Shown: in pieces, positions 34,899-53,521 of the stretch | Layout: every line of letters starts with the position of its first letter | How positions within the stretch are numbered: position 1 is the stretch's first letter | Source of the DNA: a virus | Lineage: Duplodnaviria > Caudoviricetes | Reading direction: 5' to 3' (one strand) | DNA length: 58,728 nucleotides | IMG/VR virus record: IMGVR_UViG_3300036760_000561 | Coordinates: 1 to 58,728 of that record | Notes under the pieces: model-generated | The model's input: the letters and a program-made list of their open reading frames with translations, nothing else | What the model was told of the DNA's origin: nothing | Databases searched by the model: none | Translations under genes and position numbers: made by a program

Positions 34899-35897
34899 GT
34901 CGTCCCCTTCCTCGGCTCCCCGATGTCCACCAACGCGGAAAGCGGAAATACGGCCTCCAACGCGGCGCGGGCGACAGCAACATCGCAGTTCCCCTGCGTC
35001 ACCCCGTATCGAGTGGCACGGTTTACCAGCGCGTCAATCAGCGCCCCAATCTCCTCTGGCGGCGGCAGGGGCGCGGTGTCCTCGCCGGTCCCGACCGAGT
35101 GGGTGAGGTAGTGATGGGTCGGGTCCGTGGTGGAGGCGATCATAAGACCGAGCACACTGTCGTCAACATCGCGGGTGGGCACAACCGTTTCGACGATGGC
35201 ATCCCCATTGCCGCGCCTGAGTGTCAACCGAGTCCAGCCCCATGGGTCGTCGTATCGGTGAAGGTGCGCGGTGTCGTTGGTATCCATCACCGCCTCCTCC
35301 GGGTGAAAGCGCCACTCACCAACGCGATGCTCGAATTGGCCCCCGCCTACTTCTTCTATCGAACGCATCCATTGGAATCCGAGAATCCGTCTCACAGTCC
35401 CTCCTTCGTGGCTTCCGCGATCAGTTGGACGACGCAGCCGGGGCACTCGATTCCAGCGGTCGGGGCAATCGGCGTTCGGCTCATACTCCCTCCTCTCTCA
35501 TGCGCTGGAACTTCTCATCCTCGGCTGCGGAACGTAACCCATCGCCATGCTCGCGGGCTTCTGCGTCCAGCGTGTCCTGCGTCACCGGGAAGCAATGCAA
35601 CTCGGAGCAGCATATAATGGTTGCTCCACCGGGATATCGACGCCCACAATACGGGCATTGCACGAGGTCAGTCATGTAGCCTCTTTCGTGCCGGGTCGGA
35701 GACGTGCAGGGTGTCCAGCCGCTCGACGTGCATGCTTTCGAATGAGCTGCTGAATTCTTCGCCATGTTCGACTCGACTGCTTCCCGATAAACCGCGCAAT
35801 ACGTGGGGTACGTAACGCCCCCTCGTGATACTCCTTGGCCACAAGTAACTGAGCCAACGTCGGATGTTTGAGACTCATACGATCCCCCAGCGTGTGA

Positions 35898-36098
35898 TCA
35901 TCGACTTGGATATTTCTCGGTTTTGAGCAGTTTGGCCACACTCACCGCCGAGATATTCCAACCCCATCGGTTGTGGAAGATCCCACGGCGCACATAACGC
36001 CCTAACTCCCAACGTGCTGCAAGTGTTTTGTTCATGCACAAGCGCTGCACTTGGCGTTTCCCTACCTTCAGTTTGTTGGCTACTTCTGCGGTGGTCAT
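35898..36098 (-). CDS. Excisionase-like HTH DNA-binding protein
   Basis: MTTAEVANKLKVGKRQVQRLC. Confidence 0.6.
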   Translation of the reverse strand: MTTAEVANKLKVGKRQVQRLCMNKTLAARWELGRYVRRGIFHNRWGWNISAVSVAKLLKTEKYPSR

Positions 36099-36680
36099 CC
36101 GTGGCCATGCCCTTTCTGGTGGACTCGTACAGCGAGTCGGTTTGCCTTCTCGGATGCAATTGGCTTCTTGGCACTCGCATGTCGTTGCACAATCTCCCGC
36201 ATCGTGTCCTCGACCTTTTCCTTCCTAAACCGCTTCCTGAAATCCACTGATCTTCGACTCATGCATCCCTCCGGGTTAATGCGTTGCAATGTGTGCAGCC
36301 ATCCAGCGCCAGCGCCTATACCCGGACAAAGTAGAGGGGGGCCGGATAGAACACGCCGGGCAAACTATGGAAAGGCCCCACCCTTTACCGGTCTTTCGAC
36401 TGGAAAAGTAGTGCCCCCACCCGGGCGGTAAAAGCTCGTTCAGGAATGCCGAGGCGCTGGGCATAGGCTTGAAGCCATCCTTCGATCCGACCAAAGGCGT
36501 AGGCTTCTTGAGCTTCGGTCCCCAGATTCCCATGTGTTTGCTCCCCTTTTTTCACGGAGTGAGGTTTTTTGTGAGCCCGTCGAGCTTTGACCGACGCCCG
36601 GATATTTGCCAGCATCTTTTCCCGGTTTTTGGGTAACTGCGTCCAGTGTTTTTTCATCATCCTCTTGCGGGTTAACGAAA

Positions 36681-37196
36681 TCACGCTGTAGGTTTTCCTT
36701 TAAGAGCTGCCCGGTGTTTGATCCTCATAACCGTAACTGCCGAAATGCCAAACTCTCTGGCGATGGCCCGATAAGGTCTCGGGTCCATGGCGATGTCGTT
36801 GTGGTTGCGATGGGTCAGGGTTGCTAATCCTCGTCTTTCTCGTTTCCCCATAATCGAGTCTTCTGCGGCACCCAGCTTGGGGAGGTGGACTTTGCTAACC
36901 CAAGAGATGAACTGGTTCACCTTGGCCACTCTGGCACGAAGGACCGGAATTGAGACCCCAATCGAGTCGGCCACATCCGCCAAGGATCGCTCCCCCTTCC
37001 TAACCTGAATCCAGTTCTTCAACTGAGTTTCCCGCCAGTACGAGCTCCCGAAGTACCCCGGCCCTCGTTTGCTGCCCTTCACTCCGATAGGCCCATCTGG
37101 CCCCACGGAGGGGTCAAGGAGGTCTATGGCCTCTTGGACCGACCGCTCTCCGGGTATGATCCGATCTAGAAACTCCGAGCCTACGAGAAAAGCCAC
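36681..37196 (-). CDS. Double-HTH DNA-binding protein
   Basis: SLADVADSIGVS and YRAIAREFGISAVTVMRIK. Confidence 0.6.
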   Translation of the reverse strand: MAFLVGSEFLDRIIPGERSVQEAIDLLDPSVGPDGPIGVKGSKRGPGYFGSSYWRETQLKNWIQVRKGERSLADVADSIGVSIPVLRARVAKVNQFISWVSKVHLPKLGAAEDSIMGKRERRGLATLTHRNHNDIAMDPRPYRAIAREFGISAVTVMRIKHRAALKGKPTA

Positions 37197-37224
37197 GTTA
37201 CTTTACCTTTCTAGGATATTTTAA

Positions 37225-37253
37225 AAGAAACAGCCGAGAGCCCCCGGGCGCAA
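37225..37253 (-). promoter_or_regulatory. Putative promoter TTGCGC-N17-TTTCTT
   Basis: Upstream of the 37196 start; same hexamers as 39638-39666. Confidence 0.6.
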
Positions 37254-37309
37254 GTATCGGGTTGACGGAGCAAAGTAGGGGAAATGCCCCTAACCCGGGC
37301 ATAACACGT

Positions 37310-37365
37310 TAGGGCAAAGTAAGTAGGGCAAAGTAAGTAGGGCAAAGTAAGTAGGGCAAAGTAGG
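37310..37365 (+). repeat. 4 tandem copies of 14-bp TAGGGCAAAGTAAG
   Basis: Three exact copies plus one with 1 mismatch; non-coding region. Confidence 0.95.
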
Positions 37366-37562
37366 TAGGGGGATGGGTCCCAGCCCCAGCGGCGAGGGGT
37401 ATTTTACCTACCTTTCCTCCCCCCGTTTCTCCGGGCTGAGAGTGACGCACACTACTCTCCCGGACCCCTTTGGGGGGTCCTGGAGATACGTATGCGTCAT
37501 TTCAGTATCCAGCCTATTAACAGGAAACAAACCAGAAATGTACCTAACCCGGGTAATGCTTT

Positions 37563-37688
37563 GGACATACCCCTCGTTACAGGGATACTGCTAACCCAAT
37601 GACGCTCTATAAGTATTCAAATACCTCTCGCGGGTTAGGTCGGCTTTTCCTGCCCCTTTTGAATAGGGGGACATACCCCTTGTTACAG
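37563..37688 (+). repeat. 20-bp direct repeat GGACATACCCCTYGTTACAG (37563-37582, 37669-37688)
   Basis: 1 mismatch between copies. Confidence 0.85.
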
Positions 37689-37837
37689 TATAGTGGCCTA
37701 GACCGCCGAGAAAAGAGCAGATACATAGTGGGGTATGACCGGGTTATGTGAGATACCCTCTCACACTATATCAACATTATATAGTATGTCCCTATCGTTT
37801 CTTCGAATTTCCTGCTGCTACTTAATGGCAGGTATGT

Positions 37838-39435
37838 CTATACCCCTATGAAACGCCCCTCTCTGCCGTCGTCTTCCGTCAGTGCAAACGCAAGAGTAGG
37901 GGAATCAGGGTGGAACTGGGAGTGCCCCACTGTCACGAAGGGTAGCCCACATGAGGCACAGATCGTTCCTCCGTCTGGTCCGACCACCGGCAGGAACAGG
38001 CCGGACTGGACACAGGGATGATCGGCTGGCATGTTCCGCACCCTGAGCCATGTGATTGCGGCGGGAGTGCCGGGAGTGGGGCAGGGTATTCGGGTTATAC
38101 TCCTTCCAAGGCTTCCAAAGCCAACTCAGCCTCGACCACCCGGCGATACTGGTCAGTGGCGTCCCCGATCCCGCACAACGAGGCCAGAGCCGTTTGCCCG
38201 CGTTCCGGGTAGACTACACAGCACTCGACCATCTTGGGCTCTTCGTCCCCGTCCCACGGCATCTCATCGAGGGACCAGACGAACCGAAGACCAAGATCGA
38301 CAGCCCGCTCTTCGGCTTGAGCCAGCATCCGGGCGCACTTGAGTTTCCCGGGAGGGGAAGCGTACCCAGCGTGATCACAAAAGAACTGGACCGCCTTCCG
38401 GAGCCGATTCTTGCGATAGGCTGTTCGGGTCATGCGACCACCACCCAATCCATGATGGTTCTCAGCAGGTGATCGTAGTCGCCGCTCATCGCCTCGGTCA
38501 TGAACCGCTTGGTCTCCTCCGGGGAAGCTCCCGCCTCCTTCAGCGCTCGATTGACTCGCCCAAGCAGAGCGAAGGAGTTGCCATCCATCCCGACCAGCTT
38601 GACCTTCACAGGGTACTCAGGCATTTGGTGTGATCTCCTCAAGTTGGGGCACCGTAGTGCCGGGGGGCAGGGTCCGTTCGCACTCGAAACAGGCGGTGCC
38701 GAACGGCTTGAATCGGGGAGCGAACATCACGAACCGAACCCCGTCACCGCGTCCGCAGAACACGCAGCGCGGGCGCATCTCAGGCTCGGGGAGTCTCCGT
38801 CGCCGGGTCATGGCGTCTCCTCTCCTGTTGGGATGGAGGCCTCGACCACGTGAGCCTCGTCGTGATCGATGCCGATGTTGAGCTTCAAGCTGGGAATTCG
38901 ATCGGTGGCATTGAACAACATCCGCTCAGCCCGGGCCAAGGCTATGGCGGTGGACTCACCCCGGCGCATCTCGATGGTCCCCTCAAACACGCCGCAGAAG
39001 CTGATCATGGTCATAGTGTCTCCTTTTCGGTGAGGGGCCGATGCTCGACATGCTCGCTACCGTCCCTCCCGCCAGTGGCGAAAAGGTGACAGCTCTTGCA
39101 GGTTGGAACCAGATGGAGGACAACGTGAGGAGTGAGCCCGGTTGCCGGATTCCGGCAGTTCGCGAACCACTCGCATCTGGGGGCCTTCTTGATCTTCGCA
39201 GCCATCACAGCACCTCCACTTGGGTGCCCGGGGCGATTGCCACCACCGGGATGCTCTGGACGAACTTGACCTTCTTGATCTGTCCTTTGACCATCGCCTC
39301 GAATTCGTAGGTCTTGGCCTCGCCGTCGTACCGGACCCGAACCGCTGTCTCCGAAGGTTGAACCACCACCCCGGTGAGGGGTCTCCCGGCCACCCGGAAC
39401 CGGGTCCCCGCTCCTAAGGTCCCCAAGCTCGTCAT
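37838..39435 (-). other. Leftward early operon of small hypothetical genes (incl. 38095-38433, 38430-38624, 38617-38811, 38808-39014, 39011-39208, 39205-39435)
   Basis: Coupled ORFs with RBS; 38430-38624 has a DGNSFALLGRV...SGDYDHLL motif. Confidence 0.6.
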
Positions 39436-39486
39436 CTGGTCCATCCTCTCATTGGGGTCTCTTTCCGTCGCACCGCCCACAATTGA

Positions 39487-39515
39487 AAGAAAATACATCG
39501 GGGCTCTCCTGTCAA
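39487..39515 (-). promoter_or_regulatory. Putative promoter TTGACA-N17-TTTCTT
   Basis: Leftward member of a divergent pair. Confidence 0.65.
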
Positions 39516-39637
39516 GTATCCAGTTGACGGGGCCTCGGGGGGGGGGGTACATGGGAGGCCACCCGGGAGGGGGCAGTATACCCTCGGGGGGGGGGAGTAC
39601 CCCTTTCCCTCCTGTCAGGTAGGGGTTTGCCGGGGGA

Positions 39638-39666
39638 TTGCGCACCGGCAACTCCTGTATTTTCTT
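39638..39666 (+). promoter_or_regulatory. Putative promoter TTGCGC-N17-TTTCTT
   Basis: Rightward member; shares TGTATTTTCTTTC with the leftward promoter. Confidence 0.65.
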
Positions 39667-39710
39667 TCCAGTGTAGGCGGTGCGACGAGACCCCAACCGG
39701 GAGGGACCAG

Positions 39711-39947
39711 ATGACCTCGACTCAAGAGATGGTCGCGACGGATCAGGAGGCAAGACAGGCCGCGATGATCGCGGTACTCAATGAGGTGGCTCAACCGAGA
39801 AAGACCAAAAAACTCCCTTCAATCAAGTCGATTCAGCGGATGATGGACAGCGGTTACTGCAGGGCTACCGATGGTTGCGTGGTCGAACCCGATGGTGCCT
39901 GCCCCCATGGCAAACCGTCATGGGCTCTCGAACTGGGAATGATCTGA
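39711..39947 (+). CDS. Small Cys/His phage protein
   Basis: DGCVVEPDGACPHGKPSW motif; RBS. Confidence 0.7.
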   Translation: MTSTQEMVATDQEARQAAMIAVLNEVAQPRKTKKLPSIKSIQRMMDSGYCRATDGCVVEPDGACPHGKPSWALELGMI

Positions 39948-41653
39948 TGAAACGAGTCATGATGTGGGACGACGCAGTGGATGAAGCCAAGGCGATGTTT
40001 GGCCGGAACTACTGGATGTCGCAATCCGGCACCAAGTTCAGAGTCGGCGCGGTGGTGCTGGGCCGGAACTGGATCGTGGGCGAAGGTCGCAGCTGGCGGG
40101 CGGCAATCCTGAACGCGTGGGGCAACCTTGACCGAGGAGGGAACTGAATGGCGAAGACCATCGACATGACCCCGACATGGGTGGGAATCCTGCCCGCCCT
40201 GCTGGCGGTGCTGGAGAGCTCCCCCAACACCGACAGCAGACAGCTGGTGAGGACTGAACTCAAGCGGATGGCCGCTCTCGCGGATCGTTACGTCATCAGC
40301 CAGAAGGGGATCAAGTAATGCGATGTCCAGATTGTCAGAAGTTCGTGAGCTTCGACGCCGAGGTGGAACCGGAAGAACAGAATGGGCCGGAATTCGACGG
40401 CACCGGAGTCGAAGCCGAATACCGTCGAGTGCTGACCTGCCAGGAGTGCGGCACTGAACTCAAGGAATCCATGATCACCGTGATGGCGGAGGTGGAGTGG
40501 GGCAAGGACACGACTCCAGCGGACGAATGCCCCGGGGAGAATGCCGTCGAAGGGGAACATGAGTGGGAGATCGAAGACGCTTCAGCCGAGGCGACCATAG
40601 GGACCATCGACAGGGATCGGCACGGCAAGAAGATCAAGAACCCGCGCTACATGAAGATAACCTACGGCGTGAACATCAGCGGGACGGTCAAGTGCGCCAA
40701 CTGCAACGCCGAAGGAACCTACAACGGGGACGCCGCAGAAACGGCTTCCGGCTTCGATGAACTTACCTAAACCGGGGAGATGGTTCTGCTACTGGTGCCA
40801 GCAGGGGATTACCGACCAAAGGGAGGCAAGCGGTGGCGTTACGGTAGATTGGGCGACGGAGGACGGGGATTTCGGATGCGACCAGCACCCCATTACCGGC
40901 CCAGAAGAAGGGACCGGTCCACACGAAACCATCGAGGAAGTCCGCGCCATCGTTGTGGCCTATCACCATCAGCCCGGAGGAATCGGACAATGAGAGAGTA
41001 CAACAGGGAAGAATTCTTGGGGTGGTTGGCTCAACGAGCGGCAGATCAGGTGCTGCGAGTGGGAGACTTCTATCGACACGCGCCGATGTCCGGAACTCTA
41101 GCGTCTCGTGTCGAGGTGATGGACCAGTACATGGAGGAATTCCAAGCGGCGAGAAACTCCGACAAAGTGGCGATGGCGACGGTCCTTGAATTCCTCGGTT
41201 CCGTAGACCCCGAATGACCACCCTCACCACCGTGAAAGAGTTCCATTACGCCAACCGTGAAATACGGAGACTGACCAAGACAAGGCTTCCCGTAACCCGG
41301 GAGGAGTGGGACAATTTGGTGGCCCGGATTGCGGCCAAGCTGAGACAGCAATTCAACAATTCCTCGGGGAGAGCTCTTCAATTGGCTCGCCTCGCCGTGG
41401 TTTACTCCATCGGGTACGAACTGGAGCTGACACTCCCCCGGCCCCGGAAAGGAAAAGTCCTGCAATGATCGTTTACGTGGTACGAGTCCAGACTGAGTTA
41501 GGGGACCAATTCACTTGGTCCTATCCCAACGCTTTCGGAATACGGGATGCGCTGGAGCAGTGGCTGAAAGACCCCGACACGTTCACCGGGTCTCCAGTCA
41601 AGACCATGGAGATCTTCAAGAAGAATTCACAGGAAGTTACTCAAAGACCCTAA
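39947..41653 (+). other. Rightward early small genes (39947-40147, 40148-40318, 40318-40770, 40757-40993, 40990-41217, 41214-41468, 41465-41653)
   Basis: Coupled ORFs; 40148-40318 (MAKTIDMTPTW...) translated by hand; 40318-40770 has three CxxC pairs. Confidence 0.6.
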
Positions 41654-41669
41654 TGAAAGGACACACAGC

Positions 41670-42746
41670 ATGGCACACGAACTAGAGATCATCAACGGTG
41701 AAGCATCCTTCTTCTCAGTGAAGGACACGGCTTGGCATCAGCTGGGAACCGTCATCCCGGACAACCCCTCTTTCGAAGAGGCCATCCGACTGGCAAAGCT
41801 CGATTACGAGGTTAGGGTGGAGCCCGCCTACCGCCGAATTGAGACTCCCAATGTCCGGGGCGGGGCCATCTATCAAGCCTCCACTCGAACCTTCCTGACC
41901 ACCCGGGTTGACACCGGCAAACAGCTGGGACACGTCTCCCAAACCTACCGAGCGGTCCAGAACATGGACGCCTTTGCGGTGCTGAAACCGCTGGTCGAGG
42001 GGGGAGCGCTCAGACTCGAAACGGGCGGGGTGCTGCGAGAGGGGGAGGACGCGTGGTTGCTGGGGCAGTTCGACGGCTCCAAGTTCGGCCCTAACGCGCA
42101 GGAGCAATTCATTCAGTCCAACGATCCGGTGGCTACCTACGCCATGATTCGGACCAACCACTCGGGACGGGCGGGAATTCTGATCGGGGAGACCCCAATT
42201 CGGGTGGTGTGCGCCAACACTCTGGCGATGGCCGAATCTGCCACTGGCAGCGCTCTCTGCTCAATCCGCCACACCGGCAACGCTGAAGCGAGATTGGTCG
42301 AGACCGCTCAGTTGCTGTTTCGTCGAGTGATCGAGGACTACGAGGTGATTGCGCTGGAGATGAAGCGGCTCAAAGCAACCTTCCTCGACGATGCGATGCT
42401 GCGCCAGCTGGTGCTTGATGTGGCGGTCCCGGACCCGACCAGAAATCCGAAGTTCAACCCGGATTCCCCTCTGGCCAACCACGTGATGCAACGGGCTGAG
42501 TCCAAGCGGAACATCATCGTCAATCTGTGGACCAACGGCAAGGGCCACACGGGCGATCATTCAGCATGGGAAGCTTACAACGCCGTGGTAGAGGCCATTG
42601 ACCACAACAAGGAGATGTGGCCCAATCAAAGCGGTGTGTGGCGAGCGGCATCGCTTCAAAGTGGCGTGTTGGCCGAGACCAAGCGGCGAGTGCTCAACTC
42701 GCTGCTTGCGGCGGTTCCGGCTCCCGGACTGGAGTTGGCCGTATGA
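41670..42746 (+). CDS. DUF932-family protein
   Basis: MAHELE...AWHQLG...YRAVQN...TPIRVVCANTL...AWEAYNAVVE. Confidence 0.85.
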   Translation: MAHELEIINGEASFFSVKDTAWHQLGTVIPDNPSFEEAIRLAKLDYEVRVEPAYRRIETPNVRGGAIYQASTRTFLTTRVDTGKQLGHVSQTYRAVQNMDAFAVLKPLVEGGALRLETGGVLREGEDAWLLGQFDGSKFGPNAQEQFIQSNDPVATYAMIRTNHSGRAGILIGETPIRVVCANTLAMAESATGSALCSIRHTGNAEARLVETAQLLFRRVIEDYEVIALEMKRLKATFLDDAMLRQLVLDVAVPDPTRNPKFNPDSPLANHVMQRAESKRNIIVNLWTNGKGHTGDHSAWEAYNAVVEAIDHNKEMWPNQSGVWRAASLQSGVLAETKRRVLNSLLAAVPAPGLELAV

Positions 42747-42922
42747 CAAACGATAAGGTCTATCTCGGGGACGGGCTGTACGCCCGGTACGACGGATTTC
42801 ACCTCATTCTCACCGCCGAAGACGGCATTACGGTAAGCAATGTCGTCTACCTAGACCCGGAAGTGTGGCAAGAGCTGCTCCGGGTCATGGGGAAGTGGAC
42901 AGCGGGAGGAGGACAACCATGA
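42743..42922 (+). CDS. Small conserved phage protein
   Basis: YLGDGLYARYDG...VYLDPEV motif. Confidence 0.7.
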   Translation: MTNDKVYLGDGLYARYDGFHLILTAEDGITVSNVVYLDPEVWQELLRVMGKWTAGGGQP

Positions 42923-43255
42923 GATGCCCACGGTGTTGGCGACGATTGAAGGTGAAGTGCCAACTCCGACTGGAAACGCTGGTCGAGCACGTTTCCAATC
43001 CTAACGACCAACCCTCGCTGAAAGACGCTTATGGCTGTTGGAATCCCCGTTGTACGGCGGCTACAGATGGCTCGGTGTGGGATGACTTCGGTGACGCCTA
43101 TCAAGCGGGCGGCGATGCGCTATTTAGTTGGTCATGGCGCTATTACAAGTTTGGACGCCACTGGAATAAGTACATTCGTAACCCGTGGATCAGATTCAAG
43201 TTCCGAATGAGAGGACGAAGTGTTGACATCAAGAACCCGTTCGGCAATTAGCTTC

Positions 43256-43284
43256 TTGCGCTGAGCGGGCCATCCCATTATCTT
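43256..43284 (+). promoter_or_regulatory. Putative promoter TTGCGC-N17-TATCTT
   Basis: Intergenic, upstream of the 43303 start. Confidence 0.55.
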
Positions 43285-44042
43285 GCAGGAGAGAGGAAAG
43301 ACCATGCCAGCAGAGCTAGGTCGCCGTGCTTCGGGAGCCGTGCCCCCGGAAGGAATTACGTTGAGCCGGGAAGTGGCGGAAGCCTTGATTGAGGGACTGG
43401 TGGGGAGAGTGCCCTCCTTCACCAATGATACTGCTTTCGTCCGGTGGTGCATTGATCAGCAACGACAACGGACAGCGACGGCATACGAAGGGGTTTTGGT
43501 CGATCTCCGACAAGCCCTAAGGATGGCCAATGTCCGAGCAGTCACATGGGGTGCAGAGGTCGAAAGGGTGTATCAAACGAAGCAATTGGAAATCGAGGGT
43601 CTCAAGCGGGTTATCAGGGAAGGAAAAAGTTTCCATGACGGCACATGAGGTAACCAACGGGCTGCTCAACACTTTCGATGCAGCTATTTACATCCTCGGA
43701 TTTTTGGTTCCTTTTGTTGTTTTTCACTACTGGCGGGAATTCAAAAAGTACCGTCAATGGCAGTTGCGAACCAAGCGGTTCTGGGAATTCCTTTACAACG
43801 ATGATTGAAACGAGAATTCCCGTGCAGAAGATCTACCGAGTCGTGGCCTGGAAAAAGACCGATCTTTCCCGGGTTATAATGGCGACGAAGTTCATCGCAG
43901 CGAATTCAGGGCAAGAAGCCATCGCCACGCTAGCGGGGGATCTCGGCCTTTCTCGGGAGCGATGGGACGGATCGGCCAGTCCTGAAGTGGTTCTTCGAAT
44001 CGAAGAAATTCTGTCTCAGAAGTAACAGTGTCAACTCGGTAC

Positions 44043-44071
44043 TTGACAGAAAATCCTCACTGTGCTTTTTT
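44043..44071 (+). promoter_or_regulatory. Putative promoter TTGACA-N14-TGn-TTTTTT
   Basis: Intergenic; perfect -35, extended -10 TG. Confidence 0.65.
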
Positions 44072-44542
44072 TCGGTGAAGGAATAACTCTCAACCATGGG
44101 GGACCAAGATGAAGACGATCGGACGCGCCCTCCCGAAATCCTCGACTCCAGTAAAGAGTGAGTCGAGGATTTGCTTCGGCATCATGTGGTTCAAGACTGA
44201 AAAGGAGGCGATGCAAGCCGATGCTCACGTCAAAGCATCGGGCATCACCTACAATGGCGGGTATTTTCACGGCATGCCCTGCGGTCGGGATAACACGTGG
44301 GACCACGACGGTCTTTTCGCCGTCACCAACTGATTCGAAGAGAGGGGGGCGCCGATGTGTGAAGCATGCGTCCGATTCCATTTTCATTACGGTCCCATTC
44401 CCGTGCTGTCCCGGGTTATGCAGATCGAAGACGAATTCGACCGAGGGGATTCCCTGACGCGCCTTCAAATCGAAGCTTTATTGGCCTTGATTGAGGCCAA
44501 CAAGGACCGGATTCATTTCGGGGACTATGACAGGGAGTTCGC

Positions 44543-45010
44543 ATGAACGCCGACCGGGCCATAGAAATAGCCAAGGTACTGGAGGACAAAGGGCCTCTCA
44601 AGTCCGTTGATATAGCGGCGGCTCTCGGATTGGGGATATTTCAAATCACCGCCAGACTCTCTTCGATGGAAAAGGCCGGGAGTTTGCGACGAGAGGGGAA
44701 GTTGTGGAATCTCAATACCAGCGTAGCCGCCTTGACGACCCCCGAAGTAGTTAATCCGGACAATGCCGAAGAGATGGCGGCTGGGTCTACCCGGGGGTGG
44801 AGGATTGGGTATGTCACCATGGGGGACCATTCGGCGGAGTACTATCGCAGCCATTCCGGAGAATTCTTCACTCCCGGAACTCTCAACGATGCCGATTTTG
44901 TCATTCGAAAACCCCTCACTGAGGGACTCAACGCGATTTATCTGAAACGGGTGAACCCGACCAGCGAGTTAGGAACACTTATTGCCGCCGCCCATCCAAT
45001 CACGCAGTAA
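44543..45010 (+). CDS. Winged-HTH protein
   Basis: GPLKSVDIAAALGL...RLSSMEKAGSLRREGKLW. Confidence 0.6.
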   Translation: MNADRAIEIAKVLEDKGPLKSVDIAAALGLGIFQITARLSSMEKAGSLRREGKLWNLNTSVAALTTPEVVNPDNAEEMAAGSTRGWRIGYVTMGDHSAEYYRSHSGEFFTPGTLNDADFVIRKPLTEGLNAIYLKRVNPTSELGTLIAAAHPITQ

Positions 45011-45030
45011 TTCAAGGGGGGTTCTGACCA

Positions 45031-45309
45031 GTGAGTGGCCACATCGAAATTCAGCCCAACCGGCTGCGCAAACTCAGGTTCCGTTCCCGGTTGACACAAA
45101 GGGAATTGGGAGTGTTGACCGGCATCGATCACACCACTATCAGCAAGCATGAAAGTGGAGACCGGGGACTCGATCAGCACGACATCATGCAATACTCTAG
45201 GGTGTTCAAGGTGAATACCCATGAGATTTTCATGGATACGGAAGATCGGCCATGGCAGGAGGAGCCCGGAGTAACTGCGTTGAGTAACGAAGAGGACGAT
45301 GGCGCATAA
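45031..45309 (+). CDS. XRE-family HTH regulator
   Basis: RLRKLR...LTQRELGVLTGIDHTTISKHESG. Confidence 0.85.
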   Translation: MSGHIEIQPNRLRKLRFRSRLTQRELGVLTGIDHTTISKHESGDRGLDQHDIMQYSRVFKVNTHEIFMDTEDRPWQEEPGVTALSNEEDDGA

Positions 45310-45311
45310 TC

Positions 45312-47132
45312 GTGGACTCCGACTCTCTTGCCGGGGCGATTAACTACTCCTCTATAGGATGGAGTGTAATCCCGGTAGCACGGGCTACTAAGCTCCCGCT
45401 GATTCAGTGGCAACGATACCAGAACAGGATCGCCACTGAGGAAGAAATTAGATATTGGTGGCTGCATAACCCGGACGCCAATGTGGGCATCGTGACCGGT
45501 TCGATATCCGGTCTCGTCGTCGTGGATGTGGATACCTCTGACAACGGAAGAGCGGAAGAAATCGCGAACCGCTTTCCCACTACTCTGGTATCCAGAACAG
45601 GATCGGGCGGGACTCACTTATTTTATCACCACCCTGATCCTTTTCAAACCAGATTCCCCAATCGAGTAAACAAGCAGTCCAAGACTGATATCCGTGGGGA
45701 CGGCGGGTTTGTGGTGGCTCCTCCTTCGATGCACTCCAATGGTTCTCTTTATTCGTGGGTTTTACACGACCTGTCTCGGGTTCCCACACTGCCCTTGACG
45801 GCACTACCCCTTATTTTTCCGGGGATGTCCAATCAAGCGGAGGGGGACAAGGACTGGATTCTAGAAGCGTTGCAAGGTGTTGGGGAGGGAGAGCGCAACA
45901 GCACAGCCGCCAGATTAGCGGGTTATTGGATTCACAAGGGCATTCCCGAGGACGTGATAATCGGGATGCTGTTGGATTGGAACATCAAGAACACGCCGCC
46001 GTTGCGTTCATCCGAAATCGAACGAACAGTGAGATCGGTGTGGGAAACGGCGTCCCGAGAAACAGATAGGAAATTCCAGGATAAACCGTCTACCAGTCTT
46101 AGAGTCAGAGAGCCGGAACCCTCCACGACGATGGAGGACCCTTTCTCATTGGTCCCATTTTCCGAATACATGGCTACCTTCGGGGGCCAGCCTATCAATT
46201 GGGTTATCGAAAAATGGATGCCCGACAAGACAATCATGCTGATGGTGGCTCCTCCCGGAGCATACAAGACGTGGATGCTGCTGGATCTGGCGATCAGTGT
46301 AGCCTCGGGAACCAAATTTCTCGGCCATTACCCGGTGCTGTCCAAGGGACCCGTCATCATCATCCAACAAGAGGACTTCCACGGCCAGATAGCGGAGCGA
46401 ATCGGGATCATTGTGGAATCGAGATTCGGCATGGTCTCCGGATACCGAAGTTCCGATGAGGATTTCGGGTTACAGAGCGCCCCAAATCTTCCGATCTATT
46501 TACACGCCGCTCGCCGGTTTAAGTTCTCCGATTCGGTGGTGTTGACGGCGTTGGAAAGTCACATTGCTGCCATTCGACCACGACTAGTGATTCTTGACCC
46601 ACTGTACTCAGCCGGTGAGACCGACGACTACATGGCCAAGACCGTAACTCAGATGTTCGCTTTCAAATCGATGCGGGACCGATACGGCTGTTCCTTCCTA
46701 ATGGCGCATCACACGAAAAAACACAACGATGCCGGGGGACAGGATCGGCAAGAAGCGTGGGGCTCGCAATTTCTTAATGCTTTCTTGGAGACCGGTTGGC
46801 AGATCAGGCCGGGGAAAAAAACGGAGGCGTCCACTATCAAGATTCGACGACATTTTAAGGTATCCTCCAACGTACGTGAGGAGACGATCAATTTCAACAT
46901 CAGCACAGAAGCTCCCTACAGTTATCGGGCGGATGTCACCAATGACGGGGTAGATTTACAACCGGAGGATTTGAAGGTAGAAGCCGCCTTAATGGAGGGG
47001 CCAACCACCCGTGCCGATCTGCAGAAAAAACTCCCCGCTCTCTCTGTAACTCAACTCAAAAAAACGTTGGAGAAACTAGTAGAGTTAGGCAAGGTCACCA
47101 GAGGAGTTGACTTCAAGTTTAAATTAGTCTAA
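45312..47132 (+). CDS. Prim-Pol/PriCT primase fused to RecA-like (AAA_25) helicase
   Basis: NVGIVTG...VVDVD, TGSGGTHLFY, DIRGDGGFVVAPPS, GERN, APPGAYKT, ILDP, AHHTKK. Confidence 0.88.
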   Translation: MDSDSLAGAINYSSIGWSVIPVARATKLPLIQWQRYQNRIATEEEIRYWWLHNPDANVGIVTGSISGLVVVDVDTSDNGRAEEIANRFPTTLVSRTGSGGTHLFYHHPDPFQTRFPNRVNKQSKTDIRGDGGFVVAPPSMHSNGSLYSWVLHDLSRVPTLPLTALPLIFPGMSNQAEGDKDWILEALQGVGEGERNSTAARLAGYWIHKGIPEDVIIGMLLDWNIKNTPPLRSSEIERTVRSVWETASRETDRKFQDKPSTSLRVREPEPSTTMEDPFSLVPFSEYMATFGGQPINWVIEKWMPDKTIMLMVAPPGAYKTWMLLDLAISVASGTKFLGHYPVLSKGPVIIIQQEDFHGQIAERIGIIVESRFGMVSGYRSSDEDFGLQSAPNLPIYLHAARRFKFSDSVVLTALESHIAAIRPRLVILDPLYSAGETDDYMAKTVTQMFAFKSMRDRYGCSFLMAHHTKKHNDAGGQDRQEAWGSQFLNAFLETGWQIRPGKKTEASTIKIRRHFKVSSNVREETINFNISTEAPYSYRADVTNDGVDLQPEDLKVEAALMEGPTTRADLQKKLPALSVTQLKKTLEKLVELGKVTRGVDFKFKLV

Positions 47133-47139
47133 TTGACAC

Positions 47140-47168
47140 TTGACAAATACGATCCCGAGTGTTTTTTT
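47140..47168 (+). promoter_or_regulatory. Putative promoter TTGACA-N14-TGn-TTTTTT
   Basis: Intergenic, heads the replication/Z operon. Confidence 0.65.
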
Positions 47169-47209
47169 TCGAGGGTAGGCAACCAACCTTTACACGGAAG
47201 GATCGTCAA

Positions 47210-47512
47210 ATGCCGGATATCGCTACCACCAAGACTCGCAAGCCACGCAAGGACAAGGGGATGAAGCGGAATGGAAAGATCGTCAAGATTCGAGGAGTCT
47301 GTCTCTTCTCCGGTTCGCCCACCAAGGGCAAGAAATCCCGATTCCTGCCCGGGAACGACGCCAAGCTCAAGAGCGTGTTGATCAAGGTCCACGGAGACAG
47401 CGCACCCATGGGAGCGATTCCTCGAACCGCTTTGGATGCCCTCAAGAGCCCCGGGGGAATTCTCGGTTTCAAGATCACGGATTCCGGCACCCTTCGTAAG
47501 GTCGGAGACTAG
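47210..47512 (+). CDS. Basic hypothetical protein
   Basis: SRFLPGNDAKLKSVL motif; RBS. Confidence 0.6.
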   Translation: MPDIATTKTRKPRKDKGMKRNGKIVKIRGVCLFSGSPTKGKKSRFLPGNDAKLKSVLIKVHGDSAPMGAIPRTALDALKSPGGILGFKITDSGTLRKVGD

Positions 47513-47516
47513 CCCG

Positions 47517-48671
47517 ATGCGACCGACTGGCCCGGCCCCCGTTGTTACGACCAACGACGGGAAGCCGTGGCTCAACATGTCTCAAATCTCCGAATGGACC
47601 AGATGCCGGTATCGGTACGATCTGACCACCATTCGGAGAATCCAGCCCCGGGCCATCAGCCGACCGCTGGACCTTGGCTCCGCCGTTCATGCCGGTATTG
47701 CCGCCTTATTGTCGGCCCCGGCTCTGCCCCTCGTTGGGCCGTATCGGGATGAGCACATTCGATCGGCTTTGGTCAAGTGGTACGAACGAGAACGAGAAGT
47801 TCGGTCCGGATTTCAAGGGGAGGAAGAGCAAGAGGCTCTGAATATCCGCAGCACAGCGGCCTTGATTGTGGGTCGCCAGTCTGGGTTGCTCAGCCCGGAC
47901 CGGTGGCAAGTAGTCAGGCTCCCGTATTCCAAAGCCTTGTATTCCGGGGCCAATGAGAACACGCCAGCGGGAGCCCCACTAGTTGAGCTGGGGATCTCGA
48001 AACGGTTCCCCAGCAAGCAACGGATGGGATGGGCGGGGATGCATGGGACTCCGGATGTCGTGCTGGAGGACCTGCGAGATGGGGGAGTCTGGCTCACCGA
48101 TTTCAAAGTACGTGGCACCTTCTCCCCGATTGAAGACGAAGAAACAAACATCCAGCATCCGATTTATCAGTACCTGCTGAACCACTACGGGGTGGAGGCG
48201 AACGGCCATCTGACTTGGCAGATTCGTAATGACATCCCACACCAACCCGCAATTAACAAAGACGGGAGTGTTAGCAGAGCCCGTATTGCAACGGACTGGC
48301 CGACATACCGTGATGCCGTTATCGCGGCGGGGCAGGATCCGATGGAGTACGTCGAAATGCAACAAAAATTGGCTGATGTTGAATTCACTCGGATCACGCG
48401 CACCTATCGCTCTCTCGATTCCGCCCGACGCATCTGGGACACCGTGATGACCCCGATTGCCAAGGCAATGCATCGGGAACGGAAATCCCCGGCACATCGA
48501 AGCCTGAACGCTTGGAACTGCAAAGGCTGTAGGGTCAAAGAGTTCTGTCTGGCGGAGTTGAAGGGGGAGGACACCGAATTCCTGTTGTCCACTTCATACG
48601 TGGACTTCAACAATCCACGCGAGTTCATACCCTTGACGGTCGAACAAATGCAATTCGACGAGGAAAACTGA
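47517..48671 (+). CDS. PD-(D/E)XK Cas4/RecB-like exonuclease
   Basis: C...GSAVH...PD...DFK...Q...Y...CKGC...C. Confidence 0.8.
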   Translation: MRPTGPAPVVTTNDGKPWLNMSQISEWTRCRYRYDLTTIRRIQPRAISRPLDLGSAVHAGIAALLSAPALPLVGPYRDEHIRSALVKWYEREREVRSGFQGEEEQEALNIRSTAALIVGRQSGLLSPDRWQVVRLPYSKALYSGANENTPAGAPLVELGISKRFPSKQRMGWAGMHGTPDVVLEDLRDGGVWLTDFKVRGTFSPIEDEETNIQHPIYQYLLNHYGVEANGHLTWQIRNDIPHQPAINKDGSVSRARIATDWPTYRDAVIAAGQDPMEYVEMQQKLADVEFTRITRTYRSLDSARRIWDTVMTPIAKAMHRERKSPAHRSLNAWNCKGCRVKEFCLAELKGEDTEFLLSTSYVDFNNPREFIPLTVEQMQFDEEN

Positions 48672-49468
48672 TGAAACCGAGCATCTATCGGGTGGCAGTA
48701 GAGGCCCCCACTTTCAACATGGCACTCTATGGAGACCCCGGAAGTGGGAAGACCACTCTGGCGTCAACAGCCCAGGATGTACCAGAGATGCAGAACGTCC
48801 TTTTTGCCAATATCGAGGGCGGGTTACTCTCGGTAGCGCACCGAGGCGATCTGCAAGCGCTAGACATTCACAGAACCGACGAGGTGGAAGAGCTGCTATT
48901 CATGCTGGCGCAGGGCTCTCTGAAGGACGTGAGGACAGTCGTATTGGACTCTGTGACCGAACTCCAAACACTCAATCTGGAGGAGATTACCGCTGCGGCG
49001 TTGCTCAAGGCCCGAGGCAAGGGCGACAAGCGTGAACGGGACGAGATTTGGCAAGACGATTACGGCAAGAGTACCGTACAGCTGAAGAGGTTGATTCGAG
49101 GATTCAAGGACCTCCCGGCGAATTTCATCGTTACGGCGCTCGCCAAGTACGTGTATCGAAAGAGCGACAGCAGCAGTGGCCCGGTTGAAGGGGCTGAACC
49201 CCAGATAGTGTTGCCTTCGTTGACACAGAAGCTCTGCGTTAGCATGATGGGCTACATGGACATGGTGTGGTTTACGTATTATGACGCCGACGATCAGAAA
49301 TTCAAGGCACTCACTCGCAATCAAGGCGCGTGGCGGGCCAAGACTCGGGGACCGAAATTCTCAGAGGCGATTGGTCCTCTGATGCTCAGTCCTAACCTGC
49401 CCGACATTTATCGCATCTTTGTAGAATCTGAGCGGTCCTCCCCCGCTCCGGTTGTTGTCACCACTTAA
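48671..49468 (+). CDS. Sak4-like AAA ATPase (recombinase)
   Basis: YGDPGSGKTT, VVLDSVT. Confidence 0.8.
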   Translation: MKPSIYRVAVEAPTFNMALYGDPGSGKTTLASTAQDVPEMQNVLFANIEGGLLSVAHRGDLQALDIHRTDEVEELLFMLAQGSLKDVRTVVLDSVTELQTLNLEEITAAALLKARGKGDKRERDEIWQDDYGKSTVQLKRLIRGFKDLPANFIVTALAKYVYRKSDSSSGPVEGAEPQIVLPSLTQKLCVSMMGYMDMVWFTYYDADDQKFKALTRNQGAWRAKTRGPKFSEAIGPLMLSPNLPDIYRIFVESERSSPAPVVVTT

Positions 49469-49494
49469 GGGGAGACTACTCCAAGGAGTTCCAG

Positions 49495-49968
49495 ATGACT
49501 GGACCCAAGCCGGATTTTGGTAGACCTGCTCCCTCCGATGGCGACGAGTTCTCCGCTGAGCTTCCGCCCAACGATCAGGACAGTAAGTATGCCCCCCCGG
49601 GGCAGTATCTTGCCAAAGTGGTGGATATCATCAAGAGCAGGGCCAAGAGCTCCGGCAATCCCATGTGGGTGGTCTCATTTGTGATTGTGGAAGGCGAATT
49701 CGCAGGACTCGACAAGGACGTGCATCTGGCGATCACACCAAACGCCATGTGGAAGGTCACTGAAACAATGATGGCTCTCGGTCTGGCCGACGCCTCGGGC
49801 GGCATCATCAATTTCAAGAAGACCGAAGTTCTCAATCGAGGAGCCCTCATCGTTCTTGATGACGACATGTACCGGGATCGAAAGACCGCCAAAGTCACCA
49901 AGGTACTCCCCCATCCTAAGGGGGCGGGCACTTTGATCACGGGCAGTGGGGGCAAACCCTCCTTCTGA
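49495..49968 (+). CDS. ssDNA-binding protein (DUF669-like)
   Basis: PPGQYLAKV...SSGNPM; follows the Sak4-like gene. Confidence 0.7.
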   Translation: MTGPKPDFGRPAPSDGDEFSAELPPNDQDSKYAPPGQYLAKVVDIIKSRAKSSGNPMWVVSFVIVEGEFAGLDKDVHLAITPNAMWKVTETMMALGLADASGGIINFKKTEVLNRGALIVLDDDMYRDRKTAKVTKVLPHPKGAGTLITGSGGKPSF

Positions 49969-49977
49969 GGCAACACC

Positions 49978-51726
49978 ATGCTTGTAACACGCGCAAAATT
50001 CGGGACCGCCCTAGAGGATTTAGGGCGGTTCCCCCGCCTCATTGTGGACACAGAGACCACAGGACTGAAAGTGTATCAACAGGACAGAGTGTGCGGTGTG
50101 GCGGTGTGGGGAGGGGAGGAGGAGGTTAGGCCGATGTACTTCCCCATTCGCCATGCAGAGGGGGAACATGAAGCGGAAAAGAACCTAACTCCGGACCAAT
50201 ACCGGAGTCTGATCGAAGCTTTGTCCGCCCCGGGAGTAATTCACACCGGGTGGAATTACAAATTCGATCTTGGGATGCTGCAGCGGGACGGGATGAAGGA
50301 ACCACATGCGGCGGAAGACGTGATGCTGGCAGCCCATTTGATGAATGAGAATGAGCCCAATTTCAAACTCAAAGAAACTGCCGCCCGCTACATTGACCCA
50401 CAGGCCGCAGCCGCCGAACGGGGACTGACAGAAATGTTGTCAGACCGAGGGATGACCAAGGGCGACATCTCACGTCTGCTGGCGGCTGAGGTGGAGCCCT
50501 ATGCCACACAGGATGTGGTGCTAACGGAGAGAATGCGGCAGGTTTACGTCACGGCTTTACGGGATTGGAAATTGCTCGATCTCTGGCAGGAAGTCAATGA
50601 GTACATGTTAGCGACGTATCGAATGGAACGTCACGGGTTAGCTCTTGACATCGATCTCATTCATGAGTACGTGAAAGAGGCCGCAGAGAAAGAGTCGGAC
50701 CTGTATAACAGGATTTGTGCCGCTGCCGGGTACTCAATCAATCCAAGAAGCTCCAAACAACTGCAAGCGTGGCTTGGTTTAGCCAGCACGGCTGAAGAAG
50801 TACTGGAAGAGATCGGGGAGGATCACCCCGAGGCGTTGCTGCTACGGGATTACCGAAAATGGGCGAAGGTGAGCAATACCTACTATCTCCCATGGTTGGA
50901 GAAATTGGGGGAGGACGGATTTCTTCATCCTAACTTTCTCCTCCACGGAACCATCTCGGGACGACCATCTTGCAACAGCCCGAATCTACAAGCGGTGCCG
51001 AGGAAGACTGAAATATACAAGGTAAAGGACGTGATCGTTGCTCGGCCCGGATACCGTCTGACGAACATGGACTACTCTCAAGCCGAGATTCGGCTGTTCG
51101 CCCATTACTCCGAGGATGCGATTTTAGCTGATATCTTTGAACGTGATGGGGACACCCATGGGGAGGTGGCTACGGCATTGGGCATTCCCAGGGATGCTGC
51201 CAAGAGGATCAACCTAGGGACGCAATACGGGTTAGGATCAGCGGGACTTGCTTCCAAACTCAAGATCCCGCTTTCTCTAGCCACGGAATACCTTGACCGG
51301 TACCACCGCGATCATCCGGGATCACGTCGTCTGTACTACCACATGCAGAGGAAGGCGGAGGATGTCAGATACATCCGCATGTGGACAGGACGGGTTAGAC
51401 GGTACAACTGTTCCAAGGCAGAACCCCATAAAGCTCTTTCCAATCTGATTCAGGGGGGAGTAGCTGAGGTTATGCGATACGCCATCACTTCCATTGACAG
51501 GATGGCGCGGGAGGGGCCTTTGACGGGAACTAGAATGCTGTTGCAGGTGCACGATTCTATTTTGTTCGAAACTCCAGAGGAGCGTACCGAAGAGTATCTC
51601 CCAATCATCCAAGGCATCATGCAAAATATCGGGGATTTCAGCGTTCCCCTCAGAGTGGATGTGATGACTGGAAATCGATGGGGAAAACTTGAACCATGGG
51701 GAGTTGTTCATGCCGAGACAGCATAG
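49978..51726 (+). CDS. Family A DNA polymerase with 3'-5' exonuclease, candidate DpoZ
   Basis: DTETTG, NYKFD, YATQD; motif A DYSQAEIR, motif B KRINLGTQYG, motif C VHDS. Confidence 0.92.
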   Translation: MLVTRAKFGTALEDLGRFPRLIVDTETTGLKVYQQDRVCGVAVWGGEEEVRPMYFPIRHAEGEHEAEKNLTPDQYRSLIEALSAPGVIHTGWNYKFDLGMLQRDGMKEPHAAEDVMLAAHLMNENEPNFKLKETAARYIDPQAAAAERGLTEMLSDRGMTKGDISRLLAAEVEPYATQDVVLTERMRQVYVTALRDWKLLDLWQEVNEYMLATYRMERHGLALDIDLIHEYVKEAAEKESDLYNRICAAAGYSINPRSSKQLQAWLGLASTAEEVLEEIGEDHPEALLLRDYRKWAKVSNTYYLPWLEKLGEDGFLHPNFLLHGTISGRPSCNSPNLQAVPRKTEIYKVKDVIVARPGYRLTNMDYSQAEIRLFAHYSEDAILADIFERDGDTHGEVATALGIPRDAAKRINLGTQYGLGSAGLASKLKIPLSLATEYLDRYHRDHPGSRRLYYHMQRKAEDVRYIRMWTGRVRRYNCSKAEPHKALSNLIQGGVAEVMRYAITSIDRMAREGPLTGTRMLLQVHDSILFETPEERTEEYLPIIQGIMQNIGDFSVPLRVDVMTGNRWGKLEPWGVVHAETA

Positions 51727-52798
51727 AGGAGACATTACAGCGGTTGTGGATGGGGCTTACGGGTCCTGCGGCAAGGGAGTCGTGGTTAACCATTTGGCCA
51801 AAAAATATGCAGTCCATGTCCGAGTCGGATCAGTTCAAGCGGGACACAGCCATTTCCATGCCGACACGGTATTCAAGCAGCAAGTGGTTCCAGTAGGATG
51901 GATTAACCCCAAAGCTCAACTGATAATCGGTCGTGGGGCCTTGGTCAGTTTCTCTCAACTGGTGAAGGAGGTCGAAGAAATTCTTCCTTATGATCCCTCA
52001 ATCCTAAAACGGCTCAAGATCGATTCTCGGGCCGGAGTTCTGGACGACCGGCACCACATGGAAGAAGGCGGGACAGGAGGGGACATGCACAAACGGATAG
52101 GGTCCACAGGCGAAGGAGTAGGAGCAGCCCGGATGGCTCGGATTCGTAGAGATTCCTCTTTCTTCAATCTGGCCTATCAATCGGCAGAGCTCTACGGAGG
52201 AGCTTTGTGGTCAGCTTCCGATTTGTTGATGGACAATGTGCACCATCTCATCCTCGGTGCTAGGGAAAGAGGAGAGAATACGCTGCTTGAGGGGGCACAG
52301 GGGGCTGGACTCAGTTTGATCCATGGGCCATGGCCTTATGTCACCAGTACCGACACCAACGCCTCACAGATGGCGGCGGATATCGGCCTTCCCCCGCGAT
52401 TCATAAACCGGACCGTTTTGGTGGTTAGAAGCCACCCGATAAGAGTAGCCGGGAATTCTGGCCCTCTCAAGAATGAAATCACATGGGCGGAGTTGTCCAA
52501 ACGACTAGGCAAAGAGGTTGAAGAGAAGACCACCGTTACCCGCAAGATCAGAAGGATAGGGGAGTGGGACGACGACCTTTTCATGGCGGCAGTTCGGATT
52601 AACGCTCCCACTTCTATCGCTCTCATGTTTGCCGACTACATTAACCCGGCTGACGAGGGAAAGACTCGATTTGGGGATCTGAGTGTCAAAACCAAGTCTT
52701 TCGTAAAATACCTAGAATCCATGTCCGGAGTCCCGGTTTCTCTCATCGGGACCGGGGGCCATGGCTGGAAAATCGTAGACCGGGGAATCAGACTATGA
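51710..52798 (+). CDS. purZ: PurZ/PurZ0-like 2-amino-deoxyadenylosuccinate synthetase
   Basis: PurA fold with GSCGKG (Ser for the PurA Asp), HPIRV, TTVTRKIRR, MFADY. Confidence 0.8.
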   Translation: MPRQHRGDITAVVDGAYGSCGKGVVVNHLAKKYAVHVRVGSVQAGHSHFHADTVFKQQVVPVGWINPKAQLIIGRGALVSFSQLVKEVEEILPYDPSILKRLKIDSRAGVLDDRHHMEEGGTGGDMHKRIGSTGEGVGAARMARIRRDSSFFNLAYQSAELYGGALWSASDLLMDNVHHLILGARERGENTLLEGAQGAGLSLIHGPWPYVTSTDTNASQMAADIGLPPRFINRTVLVVRSHPIRVAGNSGPLKNEITWAELSKRLGKEVEEKTTVTRKIRRIGEWDDDLFMAAVRINAPTSIALMFADYINPADEGKTRFGDLSVKTKSFVKYLESMSGVPVSLIGTGGHGWKIVDRGIRL

Positions 52799-53220
52799 TG
52801 GACAACGTGACACTGTATTGGACCGGCGAGGGGGAGAGACCAACCAAGTCCCATCCCGGGGATGCTGGATGGGACCTGTTCTCATTCGACACGTTTGCCG
52901 TAGGCCCCAAATCGTTGTCCGACATCAGAACCGGAGTATCTGTTGCTCTGCCCCACGGGTATTACGGCCATATTATGGGCAGAAGTTCCACTTTCAGGGT
53001 CCATCAATTGCAGGTCATCGAGGCCGTCATAGATTCAGGATATCGGGGAGAACTCTTCTTCCAAGTGTATAACCCGGGAGAACACACAGTCCACGTTGAC
53101 AAAGGACGCAGATTGGCTCAGCTGATTATTCTCCCGGTTCCCTCTGTGGAATGGTGCAGAGTACAAGACCTAACTTCTAGTTCGAGGGGGGACCGTGGCT
53201 TCGGAAGTTCCGGGAAATAG
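52795..53220 (+). CDS. dut: Trimeric dUTPase-fold protein
   Basis: AGWDL, GRSS, VIDSGYRGE, RLAQL, RGDRGFGSSG. Confidence 0.85.
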   Translation: MMDNVTLYWTGEGERPTKSHPGDAGWDLFSFDTFAVGPKSLSDIRTGVSVALPHGYYGHIMGRSSTFRVHQLQVIEAVIDSGYRGELFFQVYNPGEHTVHVDKGRRLAQLIILPVPSVEWCRVQDLTSSSRGDRGFGSSGK

Positions 53221-53521
53221 CGCTGCCAAGAATGACGGGGGCAAACTCAGATTTGATCTCATTCCGGTCTTACCGCTGGAAGAGTTGGTTTTCACCATCA
53301 CTCTAGGAGCCAACAAGTACGGGGATCGAGATTGGGAAAGAGGAATGCCCTACGGGAGAATGTTTGCCGCTATGTTGCGACACGCGTGGGCATGGTGGAA
53401 GGGGGAATCTCGGGATTTTGAAGACAGAAATCACCATCTGGCCGCTGTGGCGTTTTGTGCTCTGGCTCTCATGGAATTGGAACGTACTCATCCCGAGATG
53501 GACGACAGGCCAAAGTTATGA
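53195..53521 (+). CDS. dATP/dGTP diphosphohydrolase-domain protein
   Basis: KNDGGKLRFDLIP...GANKYG..DWERG...RH...HLA. Confidence 0.8.
   Translation: MASEVPGNSAAKNDGGKLRFDLIPVLPLEELVFTITLGANKYGDRDWERGMPYGRMFAAMLRHAWAWWKGESRDFEDRNHHLAAVAFCALALMELERTHPEMDDRPKL

Follow-up and report, generated by a model that had tools for sequence, protein, structure and literature searches.

According to PMC8342488, all adenine in the DNA of cyanophage S-2L is replaced by 2-aminoadenine (Z). The question at stake is how the host RNA polymerase copes with DNA whose adenines all bear an extra 2-amino group. At the -11 position of bacterial promoters, 2-aminopurine has been reported to impair stable complexes, with steric hindrance by the 2-amino group as the proposed reason, and a review adds that 2-aminopurine at this position is tolerated by an optimal promoter and not by a weak one (PMC4496690, PMC1919498). 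In another phage, AR9, the non-virion polymerase reads template-strand uracils at promoters (PMC5449584). The full-text literature searched, which omits most subscription journals and supplements, yielded no report on how promoters are adapted in Z phages.

Here we analyse a group of candidate promoters in the virus record IMGVR_UViG_3300036760_000561, the whole of one linear record from a sediment metagenome (the window, 58,728 bases, 58% G+C, estimated completeness 72%). Five sites ahead of its genes have a -35 box, a 17-nucleotide (nt) spacer and a -10 hexamer without any adenine. An earlier note on this DNA had proposed that the phage removed A from the -10 element because its genome contains Z. 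We find that the five sites are very probably promoters, as judged from their sequence, and that the most likely explanation of their T-only -10 boxes, which we advance tentatively, is a link to a 2-aminoadenine genome.

Candidate promoters with T-only -10 boxes

The sites are given below, with the stretch from the -35 to the -10 hexamer in brackets after each label:

44030..44072, plus strand: site A (44043-44071), GTCAAC-N3-GTAC, TTGACA (44043-44048), 17 nt ending in TGc, then TTTTTTT
47133..47169, plus strand: site B (47140-47168), TTGACA at 47140-47145 with an extra TTGACA at 47133, 17 nt ending in TGt, then TTTTTTTT
39487..39528, minus strand: site C (39487-39515), GTCAAC-N3-ATAC, TTGACA, 17 nt, then TTTCTT(T)
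39638..39667, plus strand: site D (39638-39666), TTGCGC, 17 nt, then TTTCTT(T), the rightward arm of a divergent control region
37225..37266, minus strand: site E (37225-37253), GTCAAC-N3-ATAC, TTGCGC, 17 nt, then TTTCTT(TT)
43256..43284, plus strand: sixth site, TTGCGC, 17 nt, TATCTT (A at -11), with an ATG at 43304, 19 nt downstream
39466..39687, no strand: inverted repeat with arms 39466-39497 and 39656-39687, 32 nt, 91% complementary

When the sequence was read again, the coordinates, strands, hexamers and exact 17-nt spacers of all six sites agreed with the earlier note. The same was true of T at -12 and -7 with T replacing -11A (5/5 sites), of the TG at -15/-14 that makes 44043-44071 and 47140-47168 extended -10 elements, and of the -11A kept in the TTGCGC-N17-TATCTT of 43256-43284. 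The count of five needed correction: all five T-only sites are present, but in sites C and D the -10 box and the bases presumed to be transcribed first are copies of each other, carried by the 32-nt inverted repeat, which makes these two one duplicated cassette and leaves four independent sites. The five -10 hexamers consist of T only, plus C at -9 in some, and the -35 box is TTGACA in three sites and TTGCGC (3/6 consensus positions) in the other two. Beyond sites A and B, the TG stands at -15/-14 in site E only if the spacer is taken as 18 nt, and in sites C and D it is found at -17/-16. In sites A, C and E, the -35 box is directly preceded by a common GTCAAC-N3-RTAC, which yields a GTCAA-N9-TTGAC palindrome overlapping this box.

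All five T-only sites point at the next gene, with a gap of 28-44 nt between the hexamer and the start codon. Site A lies 37 nt before the ATG at 44109 and heads an operon with genes for a FaeA-like winged-helix protein (44543-45010), a helix-turn-helix (HTH) protein (45031-45309) and the primase-polymerase. Site B lies 41 nt before the ATG at 47210 and heads the operon of the exonuclease, Sak4, polymerase and PurZ genes; it is unchanged in a contig of a second DNA sequencing run (X2). In the divergent control region, site C makes up the leftward arm, with an ATG at 39444, 42 nt downstream, and the ATG of site D (39711) is 44 nt beyond the hexamer. Site E, 28 nt before a GTG at 37196, heads a leftward operon that reaches the terminase, portal and head genes, and a near-identical strain in the X2 run has one difference only, upstream at position 37257. 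Among the sequencing runs listed for positions 37200-47199, none was of RNA.

The pattern TTGMSM-N17-TTTYTT has five matches on the two strands of the window. In 100 shuffles that preserved the dinucleotides it had 0.15 matches on average and never as many as five; the pattern was defined after the sites had been seen, so that the significance is overstated. Among the 27 TTGACA hexamers of the record, three have TTTYTT after exactly 17 nt, and runs of at least seven T occur only six times in the genome, both strands counted. A generic sigma-70 consensus scan of positions 35001-55000 gave 7 sites against 10.1 +/- 2.7 expected, thus ordinary -10 boxes are not enriched between 35 and 55 kilobases (kb).

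The Z gene set and the -11 base in other phages

At the level of gene content the premise of a Z genome held, as a PurZ with a serine P-loop, a family A polymerase, a dUTPase homologue and a MazZ-like hydrolase are all present:

49978..51726, plus strand: DNA polymerase of family A, including a 3'-5' exonuclease domain and lying immediately before PurZ (a DpoZ-like position)
51689..52798, plus strand: PurZ homologue, P-loop GSCGKG, with Ser where PurA has Asp
52795..53220, plus strand: dUTPase-family protein, adjoining PurZ
53195..53521, plus strand: MazZ-like PF18909 (dATP/dGTP diphosphohydrolase) domain, after the dUTPase homologue

The P-loop GSCGKG of the window PurZ compares with GDEGKG in archaeal PurA, and the protein matches the solved phiVC8 and S-2L PurZ chains in the PDB. 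A serine in the PurZ P-loop (S14 of phiVC8) has been used as the criterion for dZ genomes, and a dUTPase homologue has been proposed as the substitute for DatZ or MazZ in Wayne-like phages (both in bioRxiv 10.1101/2025.10.22.683976). No HD_3 (DatZ) match was found in the window. From these genes we infer that the window DNA contains Z. A search of the complete relative G002 found no MazZ-like PF18909 domain, in a search in which no control genome matched, and the presence of the domain in the window and its absence from G002 indicate that the Z cluster is not uniform within the phage family. Two relatives (L013/L033 and L017) encode adenylosuccinate-synthetase homologues that are 29-31% identical to the window PurZ and have GDEGKG or GGEGKG without the PurZ serine; L013 has TATAAT promoters all the same.

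Relatives of the window were collected via the primase-polymerase gene, which gave 97 loci (93 non-redundant). The motif RTAY-TTG(ACA/ACG/CGC) occurs at 59 sites across these loci and is followed at 17-18 nt by TATAAT (30 sites) or TAAAAT (16 sites) in 46 of them, with TG at -15/-14 in 45 of the 46. These canonical promoters occupy the junctions of sites A and B. Site A is the positional counterpart of the relatives' promoters upstream of the HTH gene, and the counterpart of site B is a TTGACA-N18-TGnTATAAT just downstream of the primase-polymerase gene. Because the junctions and the architecture are the same, the window sites are homologous to textbook extended -10 promoters, with the hexamer alone being different.

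Two relatives have similar boxes. L001 has TTGACG-N17-TATTTT, TTGCGC-N17-TATCTT (as in the sixth site of the window) and TTGACG-N17-TTTATT, and L050 has GTAC-TTGACG-N17-TGcTTTCTT upstream of a FaeA-like gene. In the primase-polymerase tree the window, L001 and L050 form one clade (95/84), with L018, which has TTGACA-N17-TAGCTT, as the sister; owing to long branches the placement is not certain. On this tree, the T-rich -10 would be a derived trait of the small clade. A search of viral contigs for TACTTGACA-N17-TTTYTTT returned at least 117 single, mostly AT-rich matches, and none of the 80 loci examined contained a relative of the window primase-polymerase or PurZ.

T at -11 is also found in S-2L, in which we identified seven leftward putative promoters of the form (T/A)ATTGCG(C/T/A)-N17-TGnTTTAAT or TTTACT, all of which precede a small gene or open frame. 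Under a common filter, the T(-11) sites of S-2L exceed expectation (8, with 0.54 expected), and those of a piece of the SPO1 genome fall short of it (1, with 3.3 expected). The A-free -35 variant TTGCGC is common to the window, L001 and S-2L. The only proteins that S-2L and the window have in common are PurZ (30%), VRR-NUC (39%) and one weak 53-residue match, and T at -11 thus recurs in two unrelated Z-cluster lineages. No description of this promoter family was found in the text of PMC8342488, whose supplements may annotate S-2L regulatory elements. As a separate observation, the S-2L gene annotated as 'sigma 70' (6951-7271) matches the first 107 residues of the 309-amino-acid sigma of cyanophage KBS-S-2A and ends at six N (6966-6971).

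A proposed link to 2-aminoadenine and its alternatives

The explanation that we consider most likely builds on a premise of the earlier note that is indeed in print, namely that the unsubstituted C2-H of -11A matters for strand opening (PMC4496690, PMC1919498). The T-only sites would descend from the family's canonical TTGACA-N17/18-TGnTATAAT promoters and would have kept from the ancestor the -35 box, the 17-nt spacing, -12T, -7T and, in two sites, the TG, with the -10 hexamer rebuilt to T (plus C at -9) in one small clade. With T at -11, sigma's adenine pocket would meet no Z on the non-template strand. The strength of the promoter would then come from the -35 box, the TG, -12T and -7T, possibly aided by a phage factor. 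That three sites retain the A's of their -35 box would fit a problem confined to the flipped -10 bases. We infer that the T-only sites fire and that Z is the cause of T at -11. This would be one solution among Z phages, and the commoner one would be A (that is, Z) at -11 within near-perfect consensus promoters. It is possible, in our view, rather than probable that T at -11 is a recurrent convergent promoter solution of Z phages (the window, L001, L050 and S-2L) that keeps Z out of the sigma pocket; TTGCGC may belong to the same solution. In that case the T(-11) box would be read either by host sigma acting non-canonically or by a Z-adapted phage factor, and most other Z phages would depend on maximal-consensus promoters in which Z at -11 is tolerated.

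Several observations weigh against this explanation. The earlier note had suggested comparing -11 usage in purZ-positive and purZ-negative relatives. On the purZ-positive side, the six relatives with a Ser-type PurZ (GSEGKG; G002, complete at 49 kb, L008, L015, L024, L030 and L036) keep A. Their 19 motif sites have -11A in 17, the other two being chance-like (2/6 to TATAAT), and -11A is thus present in 17/17 credible sites, with boxes TATAAT or TAAAAT. Even in the clade of the window, L001 and L050, A is still at -11 in 3/10 sites. S-2L keeps -11A in 6/13 extended -10 sites (TATAAT, TATAGT and TATACT, in the same register), and its T(-11) boxes still have A at -9/-8, so that the trait shared with the window is T at -11 and not an adenine-free box.

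Other phages with a Z cluster behave as the relatives do. In Salmonella phage PMBT28, which has purZ, mazZ, datZ and the polymerase, nine intergenic matches at a threshold of at least 10/12 consensus positions have -11A in eight and TG in eight, four of them being perfect; at the same threshold, -11A is present in 8/9 matches in phiVC8. In SH-Ab 15497 the count of A(-11) sites is 11, where 2.4 would be expected, and Bacillus phage vB_BpsS-140 (P-loop GSEGKG) has five TTGACA-N18-TGtTATAAT. Since the relatives and these four phages keep -11A, the Z cluster alone does not expel A from the -10 element, and a Z genome is neither sufficient nor required for losing -11A. In addition, T at -11 is a severe down-mutation for E. 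coli sigma-70, so that a swap of Z for T brings no obvious gain. Support for the Z link comes from two of the roughly six lineages examined, and the set of non-Z controls is small, two only (the SPO1 piece and KBS-S-2A). No clear promoter family was seen in the non-Z cyanophage KBS-S-2A or in Gordonia phage Ghobes (15.3 kb examined). Taken together, the claim that the Z genome made the phage remove A from the -10 element is only partly supported: T(-11) in the window clade and in S-2L speaks for it, and the -11A that most Z phages keep speaks against it.

The Z-cluster phages that keep -11A (PMBT28, phiVC8, SH-Ab 15497, vB_BpsS-140 and L002-L052) have strikingly perfect promoters, with TTGACA, 17-18 nt and TGnTATAAT, mostly with the TG. 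Such near-perfect promoters may be the usual compensation for Z at -11.

We regard it as somewhat unlikely that what has changed is the reader, that is, that the T-rich -10 is recognised by a phage-encoded or phage-remodelled sigma, or by an alternative host sigma that uses a TTGACA-type -35, with Z being incidental or linked only through that factor. The canonical sigma-70 pocket refuses T at -11, one box type serves early, replication and late operons, and the TTGCGC -35 box common to the window, L001 and S-2L would suit such a reader. With a linear record estimated at 72% completeness, up to 28% of the genome may lie outside the window, and a sigma gene could be there. Other Z-cluster phages have sigma genes: vB_BpsS-140 carries two annotated sigma-70 family genes, and the S-2L gene for sigma-70 region 1.2-2.2 is broken by Ns. 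However, the window gave no Sigma70_r2 match at E <= 1 and only sub-threshold HTH matches for region 4, its 171-amino-acid HTH protein, an orphan, resembles only generic HTH proteins, and homologues of the KBS-S-2A and vB_BpsS-140 sigma factors were not found in the window, G001 or G002. Besides, the earliest promoters after infection must work with the host polymerase alone. A presumed SPO1 middle-promoter consensus (AGGAGA-N17/18-TTTNTTT) has no match in 37 of the 132.5 kb of SPO1, and that analogy is not relied on.

It is improbable that the sites are weak, regulated housekeeping promoters whose -10 has decayed, with a strong -35, the TG and a regulator at GTCAAC-N3-RTAC carrying the promoter and another constraint, such as DNA shape, accounting for the T-richness. 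The GTCAA-N9-TTGAC palindrome overlaps the -35 box in three sites, nearly all relatives carry a conserved HTH gene within this operon, and the TATTTT and TATCTT of L001 look like intermediates; on the other hand, decay would give mixed bases and not runs of 6-8 T at 58% G+C, and the T-only box is also found in the independent contig L050. Activators, moreover, usually offset a poor -35 and not a lost -11A.

That the sites are not promoters, with TTGACA/TTGCGC as an operator half-site and the T run as a terminator tail or other signal, is very doubtful. A terminator scan does flag 37247-37234 on the minus strand (a 5-base-pair stem, then CTGTTTCTTT), and GTCAA-N9-TTGAC does resemble an operator. 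The other four sites, on the other hand, have no stem ahead of the T run, all five stand at a distance of exactly 17 nt from the -35 box, relatives have consensus promoters at the junctions that these sites occupy, and no alternative promoter candidates lie upstream of these operons.

Further candidates were rejected. Easier melting of a T/Z tract was set aside because the nearest-neighbour order is reported to persist in diaminopurine DNA (PMC8599871). By nearest-neighbour values, a T tract is then not easier to melt than TATAAT. Inspection by eye led us to reject sigma-54 and archaeal TATA-box readings as well, as the -35, spacer and TG geometry is kept.

If it is true that T at -11 works on Z-DNA, as the link to 2-aminoadenine would have it, the rule of an indispensable -11A would have to be revised, and design rules for expression from Z-substituted DNA would follow. 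The window and S-2L offer natural promoter pairs: relatives have TATAAT where the window has TTTTTT at the same junction, and S-2L has both TTTAAT and TATAAT.

Gene map, neighbouring features and likeness to known promoters

On the minus strand, the genes run leftward from about 39.4 kb via small genes and an 850-nt non-coding stretch to an orphan HTH gene (36681-37196), and further along to the small and large terminase, portal, head and tail genes. The rightward genes from 39.7 kb are, in order, DUF932, the FaeA-like winged-helix protein, a Cro/CI-type HTH protein, the primase-polymerase/helicase, the exonuclease, Sak4, the family A polymerase, PurZ, the dUTPase homologue, the MazZ-like domain, VRR-NUC and an SNF2 helicase. 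Rfam and tRNA scans gave no match.

The divergent control region contains more repeats. A second inverted repeat (39431-39446 / 39700-39715, 16 nt, 94% complementary) spans the ribosome sites and start codons of the divergent genes, and since it covers both start codons, the two divergent proteins share their first few residues. CCTCGGGGGGGGGG occurs in two copies (39533-39546 / 39582-39595) between the divergent promoters. About 850 nt without a convincing open reading frame separate the late-operon promoter from the leftward early genes. Inside this non-coding stretch (37200-38050), a 14-nt unit, TAGGGCAAAGTAAG, is repeated five times in tandem at 37296-37379, and dispersed repeats, GGACATACCCCTYGTTACAG and GAAATGNCCCTAACCCGGG in two copies each, lie near the array. 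The stretch could be an origin or iterons, or else a packaging site. Among the head genes, a 517-amino-acid protein (24300-25853, minus strand) matches head-maturation protease, a methyltransferase-labelled family and ATPase/polynucleotide-kinase-like PHROGs, and this combination of domains is an unusual fusion.

The primase-polymerase profile had no match among 185,579 species genomes. The terminase profile found one 47% relative in the species genomes, on a contig of a Deltaproteobacteria metagenome-assembled genome, in which the primase-polymerase is absent and the window PurZ finds only weak, PurA-like matches. This terminase match is too weak a basis for naming a host. Searches of viral contigs with the DUF932 protein and the 171-amino-acid HTH protein found no closer relatives.

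Compared with AR9, the window would likewise combine a genome-wide base replacement with an unusual promoter element. AR9, however, has its own multisubunit polymerase and another motif, whereas the window keeps the sigma-70 geometry of -35, spacer and TG, and no phage polymerase or sigma was found in it. The housekeeping sigma-70/sigma-A extended -10 promoters of the relatives, PMBT28, phiVC8 and vB_BpsS-140 share with the window sites the -35 hexamer, the 17-nt spacer, -12T and -7T, and also the TG at -15/-14 (sites A and B), the place before operons and the upstream RTAC and GTCAAC context. The window differs from them in the T for the near-invariant -11A in 5/6 sites, in five A-free hexamers, and in TTGCGC as the -35 of D, E and the sixth site. 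The S-2L promoter family shares with the window a Z cluster, T at -11, TG at -15/-14 (as in sites A and B), the 17-nt spacer, TTGCGC and one site per small operon, and differs from it in having A at -9/-8 and six further extended -10 sites with -11A.

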